64,000 nucleotides of DNA from contig CAZLQM010000003.1 in assembly GCA_964561945.1 (NCBI GenBank), positions 1,954-65,953 on the forward strand, in the 5' to 3' direction. The notes beneath the pieces were generated by a model, which worked only from the letters and a program-made list of their open reading frames with translations, did no database searches and was not told the origin of the DNA. Shown here piece after piece: positions 7,572 to 62,330 of the stretch (position 1 is its first letter; every line of letters begins with the position of its first letter). The DNA is from an uncultured Gammaproteobacteria bacterium. GTDB lineage: Bacteria > Patescibacteriota > Microgenomatia > CAYXHB01. Made by a program: the position numbers and the translations under genes.

Positions 7572-9218
7572 ATGGCTTTTTATCTTAAGTATCGTCCACA
7601 GTTGATAAGTGAACTTGATTTACCTGAAGTAAGAGAATCGTTACTTGGGTTACTTAAGTCAAAGTCTTTGCCTCATGCATTGTTATTTACGGGAATTCGG
7701 GGAACAGGTAAAACAAGTAGCGCGCGTATCTGGGCAAAGGCGATAAATTGTGAGAAGAGAGGTAGGGATTATGAGCCATGTAATAAGTGTGCTAATTGCG
7801 AGTCGATTACAAGCGGACGGAGTGTGGATGTGGTGGAGATGGACGCGGCCTCGAATCGCAAGATTGATGATATTCGGGATTTGCGTGAAAAAATTAGATT
7901 GGCTCCAACTGCGTTGAAGTATAAGATTTACATCATTGATGAGGTGCACATGTTGACGAATGAAGCCTTTAATGCGTTGCTTAAGACGTTGGAAGAGCCG
8001 CCTATAAATGTTTTGTTTGTGTTATGTACTACGGAGATTGATAAGTTGCCTGCAACGATTGTGTCGCGGTGTGTGAGAGTTAATTTTCGAATGGCAGGAT
8101 TAGAAGAGATCGCTAATTCTCTAGCGCGAGTAGCTAAAGGAGAAAAAATAAATATTGATAAGGAAGGAATTGATTTGATTGCCAAGTTGGGCGAGGGGAG
8201 TTTTCGCGATGCGACGAAAATGTTGGAGGAGATTGCTTGGATGGAGGGTAAGATTACGCAAGAAAGAGTTGAGGAGTTTTTTCATATAATCGGTGGGGAG
8301 ATGGAGACTTTGGGGCAGTTGATAAATTCCAAGGATGGATTGGGGATAATGAGTTTTGTGGAGTCTCGAGTCAGTGGCGGTGGGGATATAAAATTGTTAG
8401 CCGGTAGGGTCTTGGATTATTTGCATGTAGAATGGAAGAAGGCTTTGGAAGGTAAGAGTAGTTTAAATTATAGCGCCGGTGAAATAGGAAGTCTGATTGA
8501 TCGAGTGGATGAGTATTGGTGGAGATTTAATACGGCGCTTAAGGCCCAGTTGCCTTTGGAATTGGCTTTGGTTAATTGGTTAGAGGATCAAAATGATGGA
8601 AGTAATACAAATAAAAAAGTGAATGAAAAAAAAGTGATTAATCTTGAGATAAAAGGACAAACTCAAGATGTTAAGAAATCAGTCAAGGTTGAAGAACCAA
8701 AGGTCGAAGTGAAGAGAGCCCAATCGAAAGAAGTGATACCAGATGAATCTAAAACAGGTGCGAGCGTTGAAAGTATTGTGTTGGTTTGGGATGAGATTCT
8801 GGGGAAAGTGCGACAAAGGAATATTTCAGTCGAGGCATTTTTGCGTGCAGCTAGACCTGTGCGATTAAATAACAATCGATTAGTTTTAGAATTGGCGTAT
8901 TCGTTTCATCGGGATAAATTACTCGAAGAAGCAAATCGGAGGCTGGTGGAAGAGGTGGTAAGTAATTTGGTGGGGTTAAATTTGGGTATTGAGTGTGAAT
9001 TAAATATAAAATCAAGTTCGCTTGGTAAAGAAAAGGTAGTGGAAATTAAACCCGTATTTGTACCTTCGGCTGTGCGGAGTGTCCCAAGTGAGAATGCGGT
9101 TAGTTCTAAGAAATATGGTGGTGGATTTGGGCGGAGAACCATATCATCACAGTCTCCAGTGCCGACTGAGGAAGATGATGCGTTGGTGGAGTTTGCGGAG
9201 GAGTTATTTGGAAAGTGA
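7572..9218 (+). CDS. dnaX: DNA polymerase III subunit gamma/tau
   Basis: KYRPQ start; Walker A GIRGTGKTS; zinc module CNKCANCESI; dnaX-ybaB-recR synteny; the ORF track starts at TTG 7551. Confidence 0.9.
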   Translation: MAFYLKYRPQLISELDLPEVRESLLGLLKSKSLPHALLFTGIRGTGKTSSARIWAKAINCEKRGRDYEPCNKCANCESITSGRSVDVVEMDAASNRKIDDIRDLREKIRLAPTALKYKIYIIDEVHMLTNEAFNALLKTLEEPPINVLFVLCTTEIDKLPATIVSRCVRVNFRMAGLEEIANSLARVAKGEKINIDKEGIDLIAKLGEGSFRDATKMLEEIAWMEGKITQERVEEFFHIIGGEMETLGQLINSKDGLGIMSFVESRVSGGGDIKLLAGRVLDYLHVEWKKALEGKSSLNYSAGEIGSLIDRVDEYWWRFNTALKAQLPLELALVNWLEDQNDGSNTNKKVNEKKVINLEIKGQTQDVKKSVKVEEPKVEVKRAQSKEVIPDESKTGASVESIVLVWDEILGKVRQRNISVEAFLRAARPVRLNNNRLVLELAYSFHRDKLLEEANRRLVEEVVSNLVGLNLGIECELNIKSSSLGKEKVVEIKPVFVPSAVRSVPSENAVSSKKYGGGFGRRTISSQSPVPTEEDDALVEFAEELFGK

Positions 9219-41163: not shown

Positions 41164-41430
41164 AAGAGTTGTACATTGACTTGAACTTGTCGATTATTTT
41201 TATACACAGAGAGAGATCTTTAGCTTTGTTCTGAATGACGTTTTAAGCCTTGAGGAAAATAATCATGACTTTTTGATTTGATAAGAATTGTGTTAAGGAA
41301 GTGCAGGATGACGAAGATTGTGAGTGGGATGATGGGGTTAGTAGACAAATAGGGTTTGGCGTCGTTTTAAATATAATTTAGATTATTTAATAAGGATAGG
41401 TATGTTGAATGATTTGATTTTTAGACAAAA

Positions 41431-41462
41431 AAAGCCCGCGGCTACTCAGCCGCGGGTGGTGG
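41431..41462 (-). terminator. rho-independent terminator (GCCCGCGGCT/AGCCGCGGGT stem) for the 41470..41733 gene
   Basis: perfect 10-bp GC stem; an A-run on + means a T-run after the stem in the minus-strand transcript. Confidence 0.6.
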
Positions 41463-41469
41463 GTGGAAT

Positions 41470-41733
41470 TTATTTTCTCCCGAAGAGTATGGCATTGGCT
41501 TTGTGCGTTGATTCTTGGATAAACATTTTTCCGATGAGAGATGCAATCTCGTAATCGCTTGTGCCAATGTCCTCGAACGTCGAGTGAGAGGCTGTCATAA
41601 AGTACAGCATCTTATCAAGATGTTTGAGTTGTTTTTTGGAGTTTTTGGCTTTTCGTAGTTTAATGAGTTGCTTTTGCGCGATTTCTCTAAATTCAGTGTG
41701 TTGTTTTTTGAGCCATTCGTCAAAGTAGGTCAT
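41470..41733 (-). CDS. hypothetical small protein (87 aa) driven by conserved regulatory element E1
   Basis: AAGGAGAG RBS; conserved promoter/operator element upstream; terminator downstream. Confidence 0.45.
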   Translation of the reverse strand: MTYFDEWLKKQHTEFREIAQKQLIKLRKAKNSKKQLKHLDKMLYFMTASHSTFEDIGTSDYEIASLIGKMFIQESTHKANAILFGRK

Positions 41734-41786
41734 TGCTCTCCTTAAGTTTTAAAGGTTCCACCTGTGACTCTATGATTGAAGAGCCA

Positions 41787-41835
41787 ATCCTGATTAGGAC
41801 GGATATATTATAGGATAAAAGATATAGAAAGTCAA
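41787..41835 (-). promoter_or_regulatory. conserved promoter (TTGACT-N16-CTATAAT) plus palindromic operator ATCCTaatcAGGAT and hairpin-GGTGGAAC leader (copy E1)
   Basis: same element found upstream of 60772..61341 and 61586..62125. Confidence 0.55.
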
Positions 41836-41844
41836 AATTATAGG

Positions 41845-42360
41845 TTGAGAATTGTTGGGGAGTTGTGGCATAGTCTTATAATGGCAAAAATAGTGGGGTT
41901 TATATTTTTGGTTGGGGTGATAGTTGGAGGATGGTTTTATCTGCGGAGTGAGAGGGTTTTGTCGGAGGTTGAAAGGGATGATTTGATAAAAAATGCACGA
42001 GAGTATTTATCCAGTAATCCAATAGTCGAGAATAGCAACAATCGTGTGAAATTAGATCAGTATTGGGAACAATCACATTTGGGGAGAGATGAGTCGAGAA
42101 GATTTGATAGTGAATGGATTGATGGTAATGATCCTCTAGTTTATCCGATGGGCGGAGATAAATGGGGAGTGGTGTGGAAGGGAATGCCTGGATGTAAGCT
42201 GGTAGAGCCTTTGGAACTTGGATATGAACCTGTGTTGGTGGATGAGAGCGGTAAAGTTTGTGGGACTTGGTGGCAAATAACTGTGGAGATTGATAATAAG
42301 ATAGAGCAGAGGAGTCTTGTGATTCGGGAAATAGGATATGGTGAGGATTTGGAGTTGTAG
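41845..42360 (+). CDS. hypothetical protein with N-terminal TM helix
   Basis: 171-aa ORF. Confidence 0.35.
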   Translation: MRIVGELWHSLIMAKIVGFIFLVGVIVGGWFYLRSERVLSEVERDDLIKNAREYLSSNPIVENSNNRVKLDQYWEQSHLGRDESRRFDSEWIDGNDPLVYPMGGDKWGVVWKGMPGCKLVEPLELGYEPVLVDESGKVCGTWWQITVEIDNKIEQRSLVIREIGYGEDLEL

Positions 42361-42422
42361 AGAGAGCAAAAAGTAAAAAGCACCATACTTGTCGAGTATG
42401 GTGCTGGAGTATATATGTGGGT

Positions 42423-42791
42423 TTATCCGCGGTGAATCCACCAGCCGATTAAACCGTTGATTTGGATGGGGTCTATGCGTCCACCATGAATGGTGAATTC
42501 AAGCTCTCCGCGGGATGAGGAATTAATTCTCATATAAACACCTGACTGGGTGTTTTCTATGAAAAGTTCGCCCGCTGGGTTAGTGTAAACCTTTAAGCGA
42601 CGATGATTGTCGATGTAGCAAACTGGGAAAGGAGAATCATCATATGTTTCTTCCTTCTTTTCTTCAGCCAGGTAGAATTCCTCGTCGCTCATAACCATCT
42701 CCTTTGGGTGTAAAGTGCGATTTTCGTTAAAACGAAGACTTCTGGTGTTCAGAAGTTGAGTGATTATAGTGTAGTCATATCCAGAAGTCAA
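42423..42791 (-). CDS. hypothetical protein
   Basis: 122-aa ORF. Confidence 0.3.
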   Translation of the reverse strand: MTSGYDYTIITQLLNTRSLRFNENRTLHPKEMVMSDEEFYLAEEKKEETYDDSPFPVCYIDNHRRLKVYTNPAGELFIENTQSGVYMRINSSSRGELEFTIHGGRIDPIQINGLIGWWIHRG

Positions 42792-42914
42792 TTGTTATAG
42801 GTTAGTTGATGGAATTTAATCTTTGATATGTTTTGGATGGTGAGATATAGAGAAGTTAAATGATTTAAAGTCTAGGTTTGTTTCATTGTTTAGGAGGCTG
42901 GCGTGGAGAATTAA

Positions 42915-43250
42915 TTATTTTTTTGACAAAAAAATCCACGACTCGGGAGAGTCGTGGAAGATAGTCGATCGGAGAAAATTAGCTGTTCCACCCTTTGCAG
43001 GTTCTGGACGCAACTTGTCTTTTAGCCTGTTGAGTTCCTGAAGTTTTTTAGGAAGTGTTTCAATTGGCTCCAAACCATTAAGTATCGTCAGTTCGTTGAT
43101 TGTGACTTCGCCTGTTTGAATAGCTTCGGTTATTTCAAGAATAGTTTTTTCTGCGTAAGTCTGATCCTTTAGCGCTTGGTTACCGTCTTCAGCCTGTAGC
43201 CATCGGATTTTTGCATTGATATCGTCGAGTGCTCTAGATCCAATTACCAT
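42915..43250 (-). CDS. hypothetical protein
   Basis: 111-aa ORF; a terminator-like hairpin (CCACGACTC/GAGTCGTGG) lies within its 3' end. Confidence 0.3.
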   Translation of the reverse strand: MVIGSRALDDINAKIRWLQAEDGNQALKDQTYAEKTILEITEAIQTGEVTINELTILNGLEPIETLPKKLQELNRLKDKLRPEPAKGGTANFLRSTIFHDSPESWIFLSKK

Positions 43251-43391
43251 TATTATTCTCCTTGTGAAAGTACTATCTGAGTTTGGTTAGATTACTAAAC
43301 TAATCCCAGAAGCTGGGATGAAGTAAAGTTCAATAGGTATTTATTGTGCGTTTGTTTGACGAAATCCGAACCTTTTTTGAACGGAACTGAC

Positions 43392-43470
43392 GGCGCGCTT
43401 CGCGCGCCAAACTGAACACTCGGGCGGGCAAAAAGGAAGGGGGTTAGGGGGAAGGAATTTTTGCCCGCCC
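43392..43470. repeat. GC-rich structured element: palindrome GGCGCGC-TTC-GCGCGCC plus a 13-bp-stem hairpin GGGCGGGCAAAAA/TTTTTGCCCGCCC with a mirror-repeat loop
   Basis: read directly; GC content far above the surrounding ~40%. Confidence 0.6.
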
Positions 43471-43519
43471 TCGCTTTCCGCCGCCGCCGAATTTCGTGCC
43501 AACGAAGTTGGTGCGCCGC

Positions 43520-44497
43520 CTATTTATCAAATTTCAAAAAATATTCTTTCGGTTTGGACTCTCGCTCTATTATATCATTCCAACTCGGTTTTACATCTGA
43601 AACTCTTTTGATTTTTCCCTCATGCCAACAAAAGGGATTCACTACTCGCGATTTACAAAAAACTTTTCCATTGTAATTATTCGGATCGTTTCTGAAACCG
43701 ATTTTATTATTCATTCTATCAAACAATAAACTTAATTGTGAATCTGTCTTAATGTGCGGCTCTATTTTTTCCAAAACAATTTTATCGGTAGTATACAAAT
43801 CGGTTTCAGAAATATAGTTTTTTGAAAGTGCATAACGAAGATAATCGCCAACAGTTCGAAACATAACCGCAGAGAGCGGTCCAGCATAATAATCTGTGTT
43901 TAGCTTCAAAAATAACTCAGCGTATTTTTCAGCACTTTCAAAATCTTTAAAAATCCACTTTCCATTTTCCGCTAAAAGATTATCAGTAAAATATTTTCCA
44001 TTTTCTATTTCTCTAAAAACAGTAGCGGTTCTTAACGAGTAATCAATTCTATCCGCACATAAATCCGGCAAATCTTTTTCTTTTAGCGGAAAATTTTTGT
44101 CGTCTAAAATGTAATCTAAATCCAAATTGTATTTTTTGAGTATTTCGGGAATTTCTGATTTTCTAACAAATTCGTCAAAAACATTATCTTGATGATTATG
44201 TTCTTTTTCAGAGCCAGCGTCTAAAACATAATCTATACAATGAGAAAAAGCCGAGTGCGAAACATCGTGAATAAGTCCGGCAATTTGTTCTTCAATCGGG
44301 CGCACCGTACATTTTAAAAGCAAATAAACGCCGATTGAATGTTCAAAACGAGAATGTGCGGTTCCGGGAAAATGAGGCTCAAAATAGCCAGCTTGGTCTA
44401 CTTCCTTTAATCGCTGAAAAGTTTTGGAATTTATCAATTCCAAGATTATCGGTTCCTCAATTTCAAAATTTCCATATACTCGGTCTGTGTATTTCAT
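43520..44497 (-). CDS. HD-domain phosphohydrolase of the SAMHD1/dGTPase-like dNTP triphosphohydrolase type
   Basis: HSRFEHSIGVYLL, HDVSHSAFSH and ADRIDYSLR correspond to the three signature motifs of dGTPase/SAMHD1-like HD enzymes. Confidence 0.6.
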   Translation of the reverse strand: MKYTDRVYGNFEIEEPIILELINSKTFQRLKEVDQAGYFEPHFPGTAHSRFEHSIGVYLLLKCTVRPIEEQIAGLIHDVSHSAFSHCIDYVLDAGSEKEHNHQDNVFDEFVRKSEIPEILKKYNLDLDYILDDKNFPLKEKDLPDLCADRIDYSLRTATVFREIENGKYFTDNLLAENGKWIFKDFESAEKYAELFLKLNTDYYAGPLSAVMFRTVGDYLRYALSKNYISETDLYTTDKIVLEKIEPHIKTDSQLSLLFDRMNNKIGFRNDPNNYNGKVFCKSRVVNPFCWHEGKIKRVSDVKPSWNDIIERESKPKEYFLKFDK

Positions 44498-44500
44498 AAT

Positions 44501-44887
44501 TTATTTTAATCTTTTAACAAGTTCTGCCGGCGAAGAAATTATTTCTCTAAATAAAACATGACGACATAATTCTTCGTCGCCCGTTAGTGCATAAATTGGT
44601 TTTCCAGTCGCTACTGCATAGCCGATTTCCAAAGTCGTACTATTTCCAGCATATCCGTCTTTGTTAAAAACAAAAACCACATCGGCCATTTGTATTTTGT
44701 AAAAATGGTCATGAGTTAGCCCAAGAGCAACAAATTTTTTGTAATCGTCTGATAATTCCGCCCATTCATCTTGTCCGGAATGTAAATATGGTTCAAACAC
44801 AACAACGCCGAACTCTTTTAGTTTTTTGCCAAATTCTCGCATTTCTGGTTTAAAGCGGCGACTGCCGCAAAGGACTACTGTTTTCAT
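44501..44887 (-). CDS. nucleoside 2-deoxyribosyltransferase / DNPH1 (Rcl)-like N-glycosidase family protein
   Basis: VVLCGSRRF and ADVVFVFNKDGYAGNSTTLEIGYAVATGKPIYAL align with the DNPH1 motifs YFCGSIRG and ADVVVAEVTQPSLGVGYELGRAVA..KPILCL, including the catalytic Glu. Confidence 0.55.
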   Translation of the reverse strand: MKTVVLCGSRRFKPEMREFGKKLKEFGVVVFEPYLHSGQDEWAELSDDYKKFVALGLTHDHFYKIQMADVVFVFNKDGYAGNSTTLEIGYAVATGKPIYALTGDEELCRHVLFREIISSPAELVKRLK

Positions 44888-44892
44888 AATGT

Positions 44893-45099
44893 TTATTTTA
44901 TTAACTCTTCTATTGAAACGCCCAGCGCTTTGGCAATTTTTGCCATAGTTTGGACGCTTGGCTTATTAACAGTGCCGCCTTCGACTTTCATAAGCGTTGT
45001 ATATTTAATATCCGCTTTCTTGGCTAAATCGTCTTGGGTCAAGCCAAGTTTAGCCCGTGCTTTCTTTATATTTTCGCTGATTGTTTTTCCACTTGTCAT
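44893..45099 (-). CDS. XRE-family helix-turn-helix transcriptional regulator
   Basis: 68 aa; LGLTQDDLAKKADIKYTTLMKVEGG HTH_3 pattern; first gene of the 3-gene operon. Confidence 0.75.
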   Translation of the reverse strand: MTSGKTISENIKKARAKLGLTQDDLAKKADIKYTTLMKVEGGTVNKPSVQTMAKIAKALGVSIEELIK

Positions 45100-45146
45100 A
45101 TAAATAAAGTTTTGGTAGTATTATAGTATATAAGGTTATTACCTTT

Positions 45147-45161
45147 CCGCGCTTCGCGCGG
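45147..45161. repeat. GC-rich palindrome CCGCGC-TTC-GCGCGG, related to the one at 43392
   Basis: shares the GCGCTTCGCGC core with the left-flank element. Confidence 0.55.
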
Positions 45162-45197
45162 CCGAATCGGTCGGCAAAATTCCTGAAAGTTTGATTG

Positions 45198-45284
45198 TGG
45201 TGCCGGGGGCGGGAATCGAACCCGCACCTAGTTGCCTAGACAGGTTTTTGAGACCTGCGCGTCTGCCAGTTCCGCCACCCCGGC
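45198..45284 (-). tRNA. tRNA-Leu (anticodon CAA), type II with long variable arm, CCA encoded
   Basis: reverse complement folds as acceptor GCCGGGG/CCCCGGC, anticodon stem CAGGT/ACCTG with loop CUCAAAA, variable-arm stem CTAG/CTAG, T-arm GCGGG-TTCGATT-CCCGC. Confidence 0.85.
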
Positions 45285-58905: not shown

Positions 58906-59650
58906 AGGAGTTTTCACGACATTTGTTTCACATCCTATAATAATTATAGGACTTTAGTGTATTGAAGTAAGTTTTGAGCGATGCATAGGTTTGCATGCGG
59001 AAAATATTTAGTTGTTATTTTAATTAAAATGTAAGTTGACTTCTGTGTCAGGAGAAGTGATAAAAGAGCTAATTTGTGTATGTTATAAGTATTTTTTTTG
59101 AAGAATTTAGAGTCAGGTTTGGTGATATGAGAATAATTAATATTAGGTCTATTCTACTATGGTGGAGAGGTGGATAATGTACGTCGCACAATATAACTTT
59201 TGCGACATAGAACTTAGATGTGAAGAGGAGAAATGATTATTAGAAATTGATTGTTATTTGATTGCTATTATTGTTTTTTGCGACTGTGAGCAAGATATAA
59301 ATTAATTGAATAATCCACTATTTGTTTTAATTAGACGTATTAATAAATACGAATATTATACGAATATTCTAGGGCGTTTAAATTCTGGAAAATCATAAAT
59401 TAGGTCGATTGTTGGTTAATATTAAGATATTTTGGGGTCATAATTTATTATGATATAGATATTTATTGTATTTAGATTTATTTTTGGTGACGTCTATTGA
59501 CTGTCATTTACATATGGTTTTTATTTGTAAGTTGCATTTAATAAAATACAATTTGTGTTTATTAAATATATTGTGTACCTCATGAGTTGGAGTGCTTATA
59601 TATTTTTTAAAATGATGACATGAAACATTGGTTTGTGATACAAATAAATT

Positions 59651-60649
59651 ATGTCGCACAATCCATCGATGCTTCCTCAAGGGAATTTGGAGATGTTGTT
59701 GGGTGATTTTTTTGATTATTTGTTGGTTGAGCGACAGGTGTCTGTGTTGACTGTGAGGAATTATCGACATTATTTGGAACGATTTGCAGGGTGGATTTTT
59801 GAGGCTGGGAGAACTAAGTTCGATGTGGAAGAAATTGATCAAACGTTGATACGTAAATACCGAGTTTGGTTAGCATCGTTTCCTGTAGAAGGTGGAGGAG
59901 TATTGGACGGAGTGACTCAGAGTTATCATGTGATTGCCCTACGCTCTTTTTTGCGATGGTTGATTAAGACTGATCATAAGGTATTGGCGCCTGATCAGTT
60001 GGATTTGCCAAAGGCAAAAAATCGCAGGGTTGAGTTTATGAGTATGGATGAAGTAGAAAGATTGTTGGAAATGCCAATCACCTCTACTCTATCGGGATTG
60101 CGTGATAAAGTTATATTGGAAATGTTATTTAGTACTGGGTTGCGAGTTAGTGAGTTAGTGGGGTTGGATCGAGATCAGATTAATATCGAGCGGAGAGAGT
60201 TTGGGGTCAAAGGAAAAGGTGGGCGTGTAAGAGTGGTGTTTTTGAGTGAGCAAGCGACCCATTGGCTAGAAAGTTATCTGGTAACTCGGGATGATGAATG
60301 GGAACCGCTGTTTATAAACTATCGAGGAAGCGCGCAGAGTGAGTCTGTGGAAGAAGAAATGAAGAAATTCGATCCAGAGTATGGTAAGGCGCGGAGATTG
60401 ACAGCTCGGAGTGTACAGAGAATAGTAAAGTTGTATGCCAAAAAGGCAAAGATTCCGATTACGATAACCCCGCATGTGATTAGGCATTCGTTTGCAACGG
60501 ACTTGTTAACTGCAGGAGCGGATCTTAGAAGTGTACAAGAATTATTGGGACATAAGAATATTGCGACTACACAAATCTATACGCATGTGACTAATCGGCA
60601 ATTGAAAAATGTACATGAGCAGTTTCACAGTAAGGGAAAGGATTTTTGA
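59651..60649 (+). CDS. tyrosine site-specific recombinase (XerC/XerD-like)
   Basis: catalytic box RHSFATDLL...LLGH...TQIYTHV with active-site Tyr; SAM-like N-domain. Confidence 0.8.
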   Translation: MSHNPSMLPQGNLEMLLGDFFDYLLVERQVSVLTVRNYRHYLERFAGWIFEAGRTKFDVEEIDQTLIRKYRVWLASFPVEGGGVLDGVTQSYHVIALRSFLRWLIKTDHKVLAPDQLDLPKAKNRRVEFMSMDEVERLLEMPITSTLSGLRDKVILEMLFSTGLRVSELVGLDRDQINIERREFGVKGKGGRVRVVFLSEQATHWLESYLVTRDDEWEPLFINYRGSAQSESVEEEMKKFDPEYGKARRLTARSVQRIVKLYAKKAKIPITITPHVIRHSFATDLLTAGADLRSVQELLGHKNIATTQIYTHVTNRQLKNVHEQFHSKGKDF

Positions 60650-60653
60650 GGTA

Positions 60654-60750
60654 GACTTCTCTACCCTGCGCTATTATTGGCGTGATTATAGCGTGATAAG
60701 CACACTTGAGTTATGCAAAAAAAGCCCCGTAGCAAGGTTAGCTGCGGGGC
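60654..60750. repeat. ~75-bp repeat plus terminator hairpin (copy 1) at the 3' end of 60772..61341
   Basis: near-identical to 61468..61555; ends with AAAAAAAGCCCCG...CGGGGC. Confidence 0.6.
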
Positions 60751-60771: not shown

Positions 60772-61341
60772 TTATGCCTGTCTGAATCGGAGATCCATGA
60801 TTTCCTGTTCGGAACTCTCGAGTTGCTCGAGAGTTGTTTCTGCTGCAGAAATCTCACTACGTAGGTGTTTGAGATATTCTGTAAACAGAAGCAGGTTGCC
60901 TCGAGTTTGACGAAGTAGCCTCAAGTATCCCTCCGCTTGTTGTCGATGGTATTTCCGGTTGATTTTTGAAATCAACTCTTCAGAACTCCCAAGCCATTTC
61001 AGTGTGATTCGTCCTTCTTGGAGGTGATATCTGAGACACTCAATCTCAGAGGTCATGTCCTCTATCTGGTAAAAATCTTCTGGTTTGCTGGCTTCATAGC
61101 GAAGTGTATAAAGGATTTCTTTTGCGAGTTCTTGGTGCCACTGGATGCGGCGTTTGCAGATTTCAGCTCTTGATGTACCGAAAAACTCGATAGGTTTACC
61201 CGAGGCTTTGGAGTGCAGCAAAAATTTATTTTCCCACGTTTTAAAATCATCGTGGAAATAAATTTCTTCGCTGCGAAGTGCTGTGAGACCCTCTGAGGCC
61301 ATCATGATATGCTCGGCTTGTGTGTATTTCGGCTGTGGCAT
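60772..61341 (-). CDS. hypothetical protein (189 aa), paralog of the disrupted gene at 61586..62125
   Basis: shares N-terminal AEHIMMASEGLTALRS...FFGTS with the downstream copy; conserved promoter element E2. Confidence 0.45.
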   Translation of the reverse strand: MPQPKYTQAEHIMMASEGLTALRSEEIYFHDDFKTWENKFLLHSKASGKPIEFFGTSRAEICKRRIQWHQELAKEILYTLRYEASKPEDFYQIEDMTSEIECLRYHLQEGRITLKWLGSSEELISKINRKYHRQQAEGYLRLLRQTRGNLLLFTEYLKHLRSEISAAETTLEQLESSEQEIMDLRFRQA

Positions 61342-61417
61342 TTGTTTCTCCTTGGTTTTTAAAGTTCCACCGGTGATTCAACGTAGGCTGAACCAATCCT
61401 TGTTTAGGATGATGGAT

Positions 61418-61445
61418 ATTATAGGTTTTTAAACTCAGAAGTCAA
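61418..61445 (-). promoter_or_regulatory. conserved promoter/operator/leader element copy E2
   Basis: TTGACT...CTATAAT, operator ATCCTAAAcaAGGAT, hairpin, GGTGGAAC, RBS AAGGAGA. Confidence 0.5.
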
Positions 61446-61467
61446 TACTATAAGATGTTATCAAATG

Positions 61468-61555
61468 CAGACTTCTCTACCCTGCGCTATTATTAGCGTG
61501 ATAAGCACACTCAAGTTATGCAAAAAAAGCCCACGGTTTGGGGAAACCGTGGGAT
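61468..61555. repeat. ~75-bp repeat plus terminator hairpin (copy 2) at the 3' end of the pseudogene
   Basis: CCCACGGTTT/AAACCGTGGG stem preceded by an A-run on +. Confidence 0.6.
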
Positions 61556-61585
61556 AGGTGGATGTCTCTTTGGGAAAAACTAAAG

Positions 61586-62125
61586 CTAAAGCTGGCGGAA
61601 GCGGATCTGATCGATCTTTTCTTCTGATATCCCCAGCTCATCAAGCGTGGTGCGAGCTTTTTGAGCAAAATCCTCGAGCTTGTTGAGGAGTTGAGTGAAT
61701 TTGTAAAGATCTTCTGAGAGTTGTGAAAGCTCAATCCACGTCATTAGAGCATAGTGTTTGTAATGTTGGAGCCTGAGAGATTGAATTTTAGCCTCTGAAA
61801 GCCCCATGTCTTCAAGTGTCAATCGAGCTGCCTTGAGATGAAAGCGGAGATGCTTGACAGCCCCTTCTGAGAAATACTGAGGAATGTTTTCCTGCAAGTA
61901 TTTGGCAAAATAATGTGCTTGGGCAGTGTGCCATCGAATGTAGTGCTTGAAGATTTCGGTCTATGAGGTGCCAAAGGCTTCAATTGGTTTTTCTGAAAGC
62001 CTTTGATGTCTCCAAAATTCGTCTTCCCAAATTTTAAAGTTTTGAGAAACGATTTCTAGGCTACGCAAAGCAGCAAGGCATTGCCTTGCCATCATCTCAT
62101 GCTCATTAGGTGTATAAGCCGTCAT
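61586..62125 (-). pseudogene. paralog of 60772..61341 interrupted by an in-frame TAG (61958..61960) at a position that is Arg in the intact copy
   Basis: ORF-track pieces 61586..61897 and 61961..62158 are in the same frame and align colinearly with the intact paralog. Confidence 0.55.
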
Positions 62126-62204
62126 TGCGTTTTTCCTCCTTGAGATGTCAAAGTCCACCGATAATTCAACAAGTGTTGAACTAATCCTGAATTAGGATAC
62201 GTGT

Positions 62205-62232
62205 ATTATAGGATTGTGGGTTAGTTTGTCAA
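62205..62232 (-). promoter_or_regulatory. conserved promoter/operator/leader element copy E3
   Basis: TTGACA...CTATAAT, operator ATCCTAATTCAGGAT, hairpin TTCAACA/TGTTGAA, GGTGGAC, RBS AAGGAGG. Confidence 0.5.
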
Positions 62233-62330
62233 TGTTATAAGGTACGGGGAAAGCAGACTTTTTTATTTTTTGTGTTATTTTTAGCGCGATTATGACGTGA
62301 TATTTTATGAAGAATATAAGTTTTGGGTTA

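Follow-up and report, generated by a model that had tools for sequence, protein, structure and literature searches.

Three genes on the minus strand of the 64,000-nucleotide (nt) stretch analysed here in full (the window) are preceded by closely similar promoter and leader sequences (copies E1, E2 and E3). The question raised by this locus is whether the shared element acts as DNA, as an operator joining the genes into a small regulon, or as a regulatory RNA leader, both of which the initial annotation had put forward. Based on evidence that is computational throughout (sequence comparison and thermodynamic prediction), we consider, with a probability of roughly 55%, that the element makes up the leading half of a closed-loop messenger RNA (mRNA) frame, specific to this lineage, around small, monocistronic and fast-evolving orphan (ORFan) genes. 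In its best reading, this frame would combine protective hairpins at the 5′ end with a pairing between the 5′ and 3′ untranslated regions (UTRs) that masks the Shine-Dalgarno (SD) sequence, and it would be a member of no described family. The window is chromosomal DNA of an uncultivated, ultrasmall bacterium of the Patescibacteria (candidate phyla radiation, CPR) and carries dnaB, gyrA, a xerC/D-like gene, efp, lspA, a release factor gene, yebC and tgt; the nearest named relatives of its DnaB are from Woesebacteria and Microgenomates, and those of gyrA are Patescibacteria without exception.

E1 (41.8 kb), E2 (61.4 kb) and E3 (62.2 kb) can be aligned over ~150 columns with 74% mean identity, and their parts follow one order: an A/T-rich flank C(C/T)TATA(A/G), 2 nt, a −35 box TTGAC(T/A), a spacer of 16-17 nt, CC-TATAAT, 6-7 nt, a first hairpin (P1) built from (A/G)UCCU, a 4-5-nt loop and AGGAU, at once a 22-nt second hairpin (P2), then 2 nt, the box GGTGGA(A)C, an A/U-rich stretch of 10-11 nt, the SD sequence AAGGAG(G) and the ATG. 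Measured against the sigma70-type consensus (TTGACA / 16-18 nt / TATAAT), E1, E2 and E3 match at 11/12, 11/12 and 12/12 positions with spacers of 17, 16 and 16 nt, rather than the 15-16 nt first annotated, and by their sequence they are near-consensus sigma70-type promoters that are predicted to be strong. The core motif TCCTAA-N1-4-AGGATT occurs three times as against 0.04 expected, which bears out the three annotated copies and their places, and the distance from AGGATT to GGTGGA is exactly 23 nt in 3/3 copies. Since GGTGGAM by itself is not rare (22 occurrences vs. 16 expected), the significance of the GGTGGA box comes from its position. A covariance model built on the copies scored E1-E3 at 79.6-82.1 bits (E about 1e-18 in the 64-kb window) and retrieved no fourth copy there, the next match (E = 0.11) being merely a −10 box. 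Among Rfam families, tRNA-Leu alone matched the whole window at gathering thresholds, and searches in E-value mode (E ≤ 1-10; 61300-62300 and 41380-43420) returned noise at 10-23 bits vs. cut-offs of 48-70. The parts of the three copies, including the 3′ parts discussed below, are as follows, where (−) denotes the minus strand.

41807-41843 (−), E1 promoter: CTATAA flank, −35 TTGACT at 41835-41830, 17-nt spacer, −10 TATAAT at 41812-41807
41787-41800 (−), E1 hairpin P1: GUCCU-AAUC-AGGAU, starting 7 nt after the −10 box, at about +1
41765-41786 (−), E1 hairpin P2: UGGCUCU...AGAGUCA, without a linker to P1, with compensatory changes relative to the other copies
41756-41762 (−), E1 5′ box GGUGGAA: pairs with 41468-41462 at a base-pairing probability of 0.88-0.89
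41738-41743 (−), E1 SD sequence AAGGAG; ATG at 41733
41470-41733 (−), E1 gene: 87 amino acids (aa), one 'TFEDIGTSDYEI' repeat unit
41482-41487 (−), E1 anti-SD CUCUUC: inside the last codons, predicted partner GGAGAG
41462-41468 (−), E1 3′ box UUCCACC: 5 nt before the terminator stem
41427-41456 (−), E1 intrinsic terminator: GC stem of 9 base pairs (bp) and a T-run
61418-61452 (−), E2 promoter: CTTATAG flank, −35 TTGACT at 61445-61440, 16-nt spacer, −10 TATAAT at 61423-61418
61374-61410 (−), E2 hairpins: P1 at 61410-61396 (AUCCU-AAACA-AGGAU) and P2 at 61395-61374
61365-61371 (−), E2 5′ box GGUGGAA; SD AAGGAG at 61353-61348, ATG at 61341
60772-61341 (−), E2 gene: 189 aa, three helical repeats of ~58 aa
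60751-60769 (−), E2 3′ UTR: anti-SD CUCC at 60769-60766 and 3′ box UCCAUC at 60756-60751 (G·U with the 5′ box), base-pairing probability 0.94-0.99
60717-60749 (−), E2 intrinsic terminator
62205-62239 (−), E3 promoter: CTTATAA flank, −35 TTGACA at 62232-62227, 16-nt spacer, −10 TATAAT at 62210-62205
62162-62198 (−), E3 hairpins: P1 at 62198-62184 and P2 at 62183-62162
62153-62159 (−), E3 5′ box GGUGGAC; SD AAGGAGG at 62141-62135, ATG at 62125
61586-62125 (−), E3 gene: paralog of E2, with an in-frame TAG at 61963-61961
61557-61580 (−), E3 3′ UTR: anti-SD GUUUUUCCC at 61580-61572 and 3′ box UCCACC at 61562-61557
61522-61553 (−), E3 intrinsic terminator

Eight modules from two sister genomes (E1-E5, L056o, c1 and c2) plus one distant relative (L144) were available for comparison. 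The sister species (GCA_964444295.1, ~80% nucleotide identity to the window) has one E3 ortholog downstream of gyrA (locus L056, copy L056o) and two more copies, c1 and c2, between dnaB and a 159-aa gene (locus L140); c1 precedes a 62-aa gene and c2 an 82-aa Cys-rich gene, and neither product is hydrophobic. The initial annotation had made the element depend on additional copies and covariation; both were found, the latter described below, although the additional copies lie in the sister species and none in the window. Copy c1 sits at the position of E1 and has the upstream flank, leader and terminator in common with it, but not the coding sequence, so that between dnaB and the 159-aa gene one 87-aa gene in the window (41470-41733) stands opposite two modules in L140 (11402-12132); more distant dnaB-syntenic relatives (L136, L137) have no module and no gene at this locus. 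In the distant relative L144 the E2/E3 protein has an ortholog with 34% identity, whose gene likewise converges on a xerC-like gene; the leader there keeps the promoter layout, P1 (GUCC...GGAC) and a 7-bp P2 of entirely different sequence, without the GGUGGA box. The leader of two remote family members (L145, L148) is short and plain, and the leader described here is therefore not tied to the protein family. Covariance model R1 was run over 83 loci (0.94 Mb, mostly gyrA neighbourhoods of other Patescibacteria) and matched in the sister species and the window's own population alone; a match in L137 (E = 0.29) lay inside a coding region and was discarded. A loose pattern, TCCTAA..AGGATT..GGTGGA, gave 50 matches in viral contigs, all by chance and inside coding sequences, while a stricter one gave 0 in genome contigs and 3 chance matches in metagenome contigs; the sister species escapes such strict scans because its P1 loop reads GACT/GACC. 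Two further modules of the window are more diverged:

42935-43319 (−), E5, same architecture: P1 at 43319-43303, then P2; box AGAUAGU at 43278-43272; gene at 43250-42915
42959-42976 (−), E5 3′ parts: anti-SD UUCUCC at 42976-42971 and 3′ box ACUAUCU at 42965-42959, abutting the terminator at 42958-42935
42380-42800 (−), E4: related promoter CCTATAACAATTGACTT-N17-TATAAT, P1/P2 leader of other sequences, weak SD:CUCC contact and no box pair

The E5 reading frame crosses its own terminator hairpin and T-run (42934-42928) to a stop codon at 42917-42915, and termination at the T-run would therefore give an mRNA without a stop codon.

Whether the leader works as DNA or RNA is best judged from its hairpins. 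P1 starts 7-8 nt downstream of the −10 box in every copy, about where transcription would be expected to begin. Its E1 version, annotated as an ATCCT palindrome, in fact reads GTCCT..AGGAT, and its loop is 4 nt long in E1 and 5 nt in E2 and E3, with variable sequence. The outer, closing pair can be A-U, G·U (E1; a mismatch in DNA) or G-C (L144), and TCC and GGA are separated by 6 nt in E1, L056o, c1, c2 and L144, vs. 7 nt in E2 and E3. While P1 has an invariant stem sequence across six copies, the sequence of P2 varies freely, and the compensatory differences noted from the three window copies held when covariation was assessed over six distinct aligned copies (E1, E2, E3, L056o, c1 and c2): 5/9 pairs of P2 are altered on both sides, 92.6% of cells are paired, the score was reached by 0/500 shuffles and no slid register came near it. 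The P2 of L144 could not be aligned by MAFFT and a broader covariance model was not built; population variants 99.4-99.9% identical to the window (L001, L002, L142, L143) were uninformative on covariation. Between the two species the stems, the box and the SD sequence are kept while loops, promoter spacer and upstream DNA have diverged, and E4 and E5 have a hairpin of different sequence at the P1 position, the P2 of the E4 orthologs changing in a compensatory manner between the two species. Since P2 covaries, loops and closing pair vary, E4 and E5 carry other hairpins and P1 lies at the probable start, the leader is best read as a transcribed RNA structure, which fits the sequences better than a dimeric operator and favours the cis-regulatory RNA leader among the two initial proposals. 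A three-way junction in E2, with GGUGGA paired to a UCCAUC upstream of P1, was discarded, as it occurs in E2 only, is unconserved and has its partner at or before the likely start.

What the initial annotation did not foresee is that the conserved box has a partner at the other end of the transcript. In E1, E3 and L056o the sequence UCCACC, and in E2 UCCAUC, lies 1-5 nt before the stem of the intrinsic terminator and is the complement of the 5′ box GGUGGA (with a G·U in E2). UCCAYC has a background of 0.001 per position in the window and is absent before the five other terminators detected there (three others plus those of E4 and E5). The predicted full transcripts (332-691 nt) were folded, and in the minimum free energy (MFE) structures the two boxes are paired in E1, E2, E3 and L056o; the pairing probability in these full-transcript folds is 0.88-1.0 for E1-E3, while for L056o the pairing is that of the MFE structure alone. 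In the same folds an anti-SD run of pyrimidines, shortly before the 3′ box, pairs with the SD region, by the helix GGAGAG:CUCUUC in E1, GGAG:CUCC plus AUGCC:GGCAU in E2, G-GGAAAAAC:GUUUUUCC-C in E3 and GGAGAAAC:GUUUCUCC in L056o. Copy c1 has a 9-bp box helix (UUGGUGGAA:UUCUACCAA) and an 8-bp SD helix (AGGAGAUU:AAUCUCCU) whose 3′ arms are contiguous, with probabilities of ~0.94-1.0 over most pairs. E5 has another clamp at the same positions, AGAUAGU:ACUAUCU, together with GGAGAA:UUCUCC (probability about 1.0). Thus the nucleotides flanking GGAG, and in E5 the entire box, vary between modules, while complementarity at fixed positions is retained.

The position of the partner is also specific. 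In E1, E3, L056o, c1 and E5 the last 40 nt before the terminator are the best duplex partner of the segment from the box to the AUG in the whole transcript, equalled by 0 of 162-504 distant windows and ranking in the top 0.5-1.9% of windows taken from the whole 64 kb. GGAG has a predicted probability of being unpaired of 0.001-0.09 in full-length transcripts vs. 0.13-0.45 in transcripts lacking the terminator and the 45 nt before it, with E3 and c2 as exceptions. An SD region complementary to a conserved or covarying 3′-terminal segment, as expected of SD masking by 5′-3′ UTR pairing, is thereby predicted strongly for E1, E3, L056o, c1 and E5, and more weakly for E2.

Taken together, these features suggest the following course of events. 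The promoter would fire 6-8 nt past TATAAT, so that the transcript opens with P1, and P1 would stack with the abutting P2 as a double hairpin right at the 5′ end, which may shield this end from 5′-end-dependent ribonucleases (RNases). The single-stranded GGUGGA(A) and, ~15 nt further on, the SD region would then pair with two adjacent segments of the 3′ end, the anti-SD and the anti-box UCCAYC, located 0-5 nt before the intrinsic terminator hairpin. The finished transcript would in this way form a closed loop in which the SD is masked and each end is structured, and the expected outcome is a stable closed message with poor initiation, which could be translated solely within a co-transcriptional window or upon an unlocking event. 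The 3′ arm of E1 and E5 lies partly inside the last codons, and a terminating ribosome would therefore itself open the lock.

Several points weigh against this closed-loop reading. The predicted E3 helix covers GGAAAAAC and takes in only part of GGAG; the two-helix duplex of E2 is weak by itself (top 29% of background); c2 has a degenerate box and no long-range helix in the folds; and the terminal lock is absent in E4 and L144. The cognate combination of 5′ and 3′ segments beats 113/120 permutations, which is modest because boxes and SD sequences are common to the copies. Among E1-E3 the box helix is invariant, so that covariation comes from c1 (a register shift and a G·U), E2 (a G·U) and E5. 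MFE predictions often pair the ends of long RNAs, and the starts and ends of the RNAs folded here are deduced from sequence. The sample is small, and the invariance of the P1 stem might reflect recognition by a protein, at the DNA or RNA level, although such a protein could coexist with the closed loop.

Five other explanations were weighed against these data. That a repressor binds the palindrome ATCCT-N4/5-AGGAT (+1 to +15), perhaps along with GGTGGA, and unites the genes in a small regulon appears unlikely, even if it may coexist with the RNA reading: the invariant P1 stem beside a variable P2, the overlap with the start (a typical operator position) and an XRE-type helix-turn-helix (HTH) gene nearby (44893-45099) speak for it, but the half-site spacing differs by 1 bp between copies, so that neither spacing nor sequence is fixed, the closing position may be A-T, G/T (a DNA mismatch) or G-C, E4 and E5 of the same genome carry other palindromes at the same place, and P2 and the 3′ complement would be left without a function under an operator. 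The XRE protein, proposed earlier as a candidate regulator, is less likely to have this role, as its gene belongs to a 2.4-kb island for which the sister genome has no counterpart at the syntenic place, although that genome retains the element. A ligand- or protein-sensing leader, with P1, P2 and the box as an aptamer or protein site that controls the SD sequence in cis, would explain why a conserved P1 and a conserved single-stranded GGUGGA precede several genes; we consider it very unlikely, since there is no Rfam match even at E ≤ 1-10, the two simple hairpins have variable loops and no conserved junction or pseudoknot as a riboswitch would, the box has a complement at the 3′ end for which E5 swaps in another complementary pair, the genes that follow vary from copy to copy and have no link to metabolism, and the leader is missing from distant protein family members, which goes against autoregulation tied to the protein. 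About equally improbable is that the element has no special function and is left over from duplication or gene conversion of promoter regions, with coincidental pairings. E2 and E3 are indeed tandem paralogs separated by a repeat (R) with 95-97% identity, the E1 protein is their distant paralog, and all modules may share one ancestor. However, the leaders are ~75-80% identical where the coding sequences of E2 and E3 no longer align as DNA, their proteins are only 37% identical and E1 vs. E2 is undetectable by BLASTP, so that recent duplication alone is no explanation, as the initial annotation had argued; the sister species moreover keeps stems, box and SD sequence while the surroundings diverge, and both the compensatory changes of P2 and the position-specific 3′ partner are evidence of selection.

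The remaining two explanations concern mobile or toxic genes. GGTGGAA...TTCCACC could be DNA inverted repeats around the SD and coding sequence that serve a recombinase, for example the adjacent XerC/D-like one, in cassette exchange or inversion, and at the E1 locus the coding sequence does differ between sister species inside a conserved frame of promoter, leader and terminator, while the E2/E3 and L144 modules adjoin a tyrosine recombinase gene. We hold this for the least credible of the explanations, as the repeats measure merely 6-7 bp, the complementarity in E2 and c1 depends on G·U (a mismatch in DNA), DNA repeats would not account for the SD:anti-SD helix, no recombinase gene adjoins E1 or E5, and the recombinase scores best as XerD/XerC (246/240 bits) rather than as integron integrase or invertase. 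An integron cassette array was likewise not recognised, with 122 bits on the integron-integrase model (cut-off 265) and no attC-like R″/R′ cores on inspection of repeat R. A type I toxin-antitoxin-like system, in which a 5′-3′ lock keeps a toxin mRNA inert until 3′ processing and an antisense RNA is the antitoxin, shares with hok and aapA the SD-sequestering 5′-3′ interaction, several copies per genome, small ORFans and a gene content that varies between relatives (PMC6733600). It is nevertheless decidedly unlikely here: the products are hydrophilic, confidently helical and 62-189 aa long, not short membrane peptides; a scan able to detect consensus promoters alone found no sigma70-like antisense (plus-strand) promoter in E2 and E3 and one weak, unconserved 9/12 site in E1; and E3 tolerates a nonsense codon while its paralog persists.

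Compared with known systems, the predicted closed loop has partial precedents. The leaders of ompA, ermC and aprE are 5′-terminal stem-loops that stabilise mRNAs, and as in the modules their hairpin begins within a few nt of the 5′ end; here, however, two hairpins abut and are followed by a box that would pair with the 3′ end, and stabilisation would be an expected property. Pairing of 5′ and 3′ UTRs is documented for icaR (PMC3868564), hbs (PMC5737220) and aapA3 (PMC6733600). In the type I toxin mRNAs of hok/Sok and aapA/IsoA a long-distance 5′-3′ interaction (fbi/tac) closes the full-length message (PMC6733600), just as pairing of the 5′ UTR with an anti-SD-containing segment close to the 3′ end is predicted to do here, and those systems too have several copies per genome with module-specific sequences; the products here are instead soluble helical or Cys-rich proteins of 62-189 aa rather than hydrophobic peptides of <60 aa, no antisense RNA gene was found by the consensus-promoter scan, and there are no evident metastable 5′ hairpins that mask the SD. 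In Staphylococcus aureus icaR, the 3′ UTR sequence UCCCCUG pairs with the SD of the same mRNA (PMC3868564), similar to the pyrimidine-rich anti-SD predicted here, but icaR is a single gene with a 3′ UTR of >100 nt, whereas the modules have 3′ UTRs of ~20-50 nt, a second conserved helix (box:anti-box) beside the terminator and a design that recurs in a set of genes. The 14-bp 5′/3′-UTR interaction of Bacillus subtilis hbs modulates RNase Y cleavage (PMC5737220); both cases involve small monocistronic mRNAs, strongly expressed (predicted here), with a structured 5′ UTR and a 5′-3′ helix bearing on RNase access, although hbs is a single gene of unrelated sequence whose helix protects a cleavage site and does not mask the SD. 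Because the products differ from small hydrophobic toxins, an antisense promoter was not seen and the sequences are unrelated, the modules fall outside the hok/aapA, icaR and hbs families. The model also fits the repression and destabilisation of bacterial mRNAs by distant anti-SDs: in B. subtilis, far-downstream anti-SD-like sequences have these effects and are normally depleted from genes and selected against (PMC12697547). In the modules the design appears to be kept on purpose, recurring in at least five genes within 21 kb and in the sister species, with compensatory variation.

The proteins inside this frame were annotated as uncharacterised (87 aa; 189 aa and its paralog), and indeed Pfam, NCBIfam and PHROGs gave no family for any module protein, with no close homologs beyond the organism's own population; the E3 paralog, however, turned out to be interrupted. 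The E2 protein, whose distant relatives (P0129-P0152) came from a full HMMER search, belongs to a family in which ~58-aa helical repeats carrying the motif TLEDIGTSEEEL occur in tandem. Its AlphaFold2 model is all-helical (predicted local distance difference test 94, predicted template modelling (TM) score 0.84), and Foldseek found no significant match for it in the PDB (best E = 0.08, TM < 0.3). Contrary to the earlier view that E1 lies upstream of an unrelated gene, hhalign matched the 87-aa protein to the E2-type repeat family over one full repeat (probability 77%, E = 2e-5), which by sequence makes it a distant single-repeat paralog of the E2/E3 family; this homology emerged solely via a profile of distant family members, and the family profile gave no homology for the c1 protein. 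In E3, the in-frame TAG takes the place of AGA in its paralog E2 and CGA (Arg) in the sister-species ortholog, recurs in the independent assembly L142 and splits the gene there into open reading frames (ORFs) of 54 and 103 aa; it is a genuine nonsense codon, given that the gene's own terminal stop is also TAG. E3 thus appears to have become a pseudogene recently, with its promoter, leader and 3′ lock still intact.

The exchange of coding sequences within conserved surroundings hints at a wider, tentative possibility, namely that the modules are a reusable closed-loop cassette (promoter, double hairpin, box/anti-box, SD/anti-SD and terminator) holding fast-evolving or swapped small ORFs, among them the 'TLEDIGTSEEEL' repeat proteins, the 62-aa protein and the Cys-rich 82-aa protein. 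The conserved UTRs would then be a translational lock, perhaps placing the terminating ribosome beside the start site, and also homology arms for the exchange of coding sequences between modules. If so, ultrasmall episymbionts would possess an expression system dedicated to variable proteins, which possibly act in host interaction. As for the closed loop itself, the coupling of an anti-SD and a second clamp helix directly before the terminator to a 5′-terminal double hairpin would be a rare mRNA lock. If it is real, Patescibacteria, about whose gene regulation hardly anything is known, would gain their first described cis-regulatory mRNA architecture, and a simple search rule would follow, in which the 5′ box is the complement of a pre-terminator box. 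The uncharacterised helical-repeat family, and a locus of changing coding sequences inside a fixed regulatory frame, deserve attention in their own right.

Repeat R, a direct repeat of ~50-75 nt whose copies in the window are the ones with 95-97% identity, lies after the E2 and E3 terminators at 60651-60727 and 61467-61532, and flanks the single module on both sides in the sister species (L056, ~7584-7632 and ~8370-8420). It directly follows the stop codon of the convergent XerC/D-like recombinase gene (59651-60649), a gene pairing that recurs in L144, and could be a recombination site or the substrate of a tandem duplication. Upstream of the recombinase gene, an AT-rich stretch of 750 nt without a convincing ORF (58906-59650) separates it from tgt and begins with a good promoter-like site, TTCACG-N17-TATAAT at 58913-58941 on the plus strand, which recurs in the sister genome.

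The 2.4-kb island at 42770-45200, in whose place the sister genome (L140) has ~70 nt, contains E5, an HD-domain protein, a nucleoside 2-deoxyribosyltransferase-like protein and the XRE-type HTH protein; adjoining tRNA-Leu(CAA) at 45198-45284, it resembles a small variable island next to a tRNA gene. The non-coding minus-strand segment 43380-43520, which separates E5 from the HD-domain gene, is GC-rich in surroundings of ~40% G+C and holds two long perfect hairpins, GGGCGGGCAAAAA...TTTTTGCCCGCCC and GGCGCGCGAAGCGCGCC. Next to E1, the promoter region of the divergent 159-aa gene (41845-41883, plus strand; ATG at 41881) overlaps the upstream flank of the E1 promoter; its −10-like CATAGT ends 6 nt before the ATG, without an SD sequence, and the mRNA of this gene may be leaderless.

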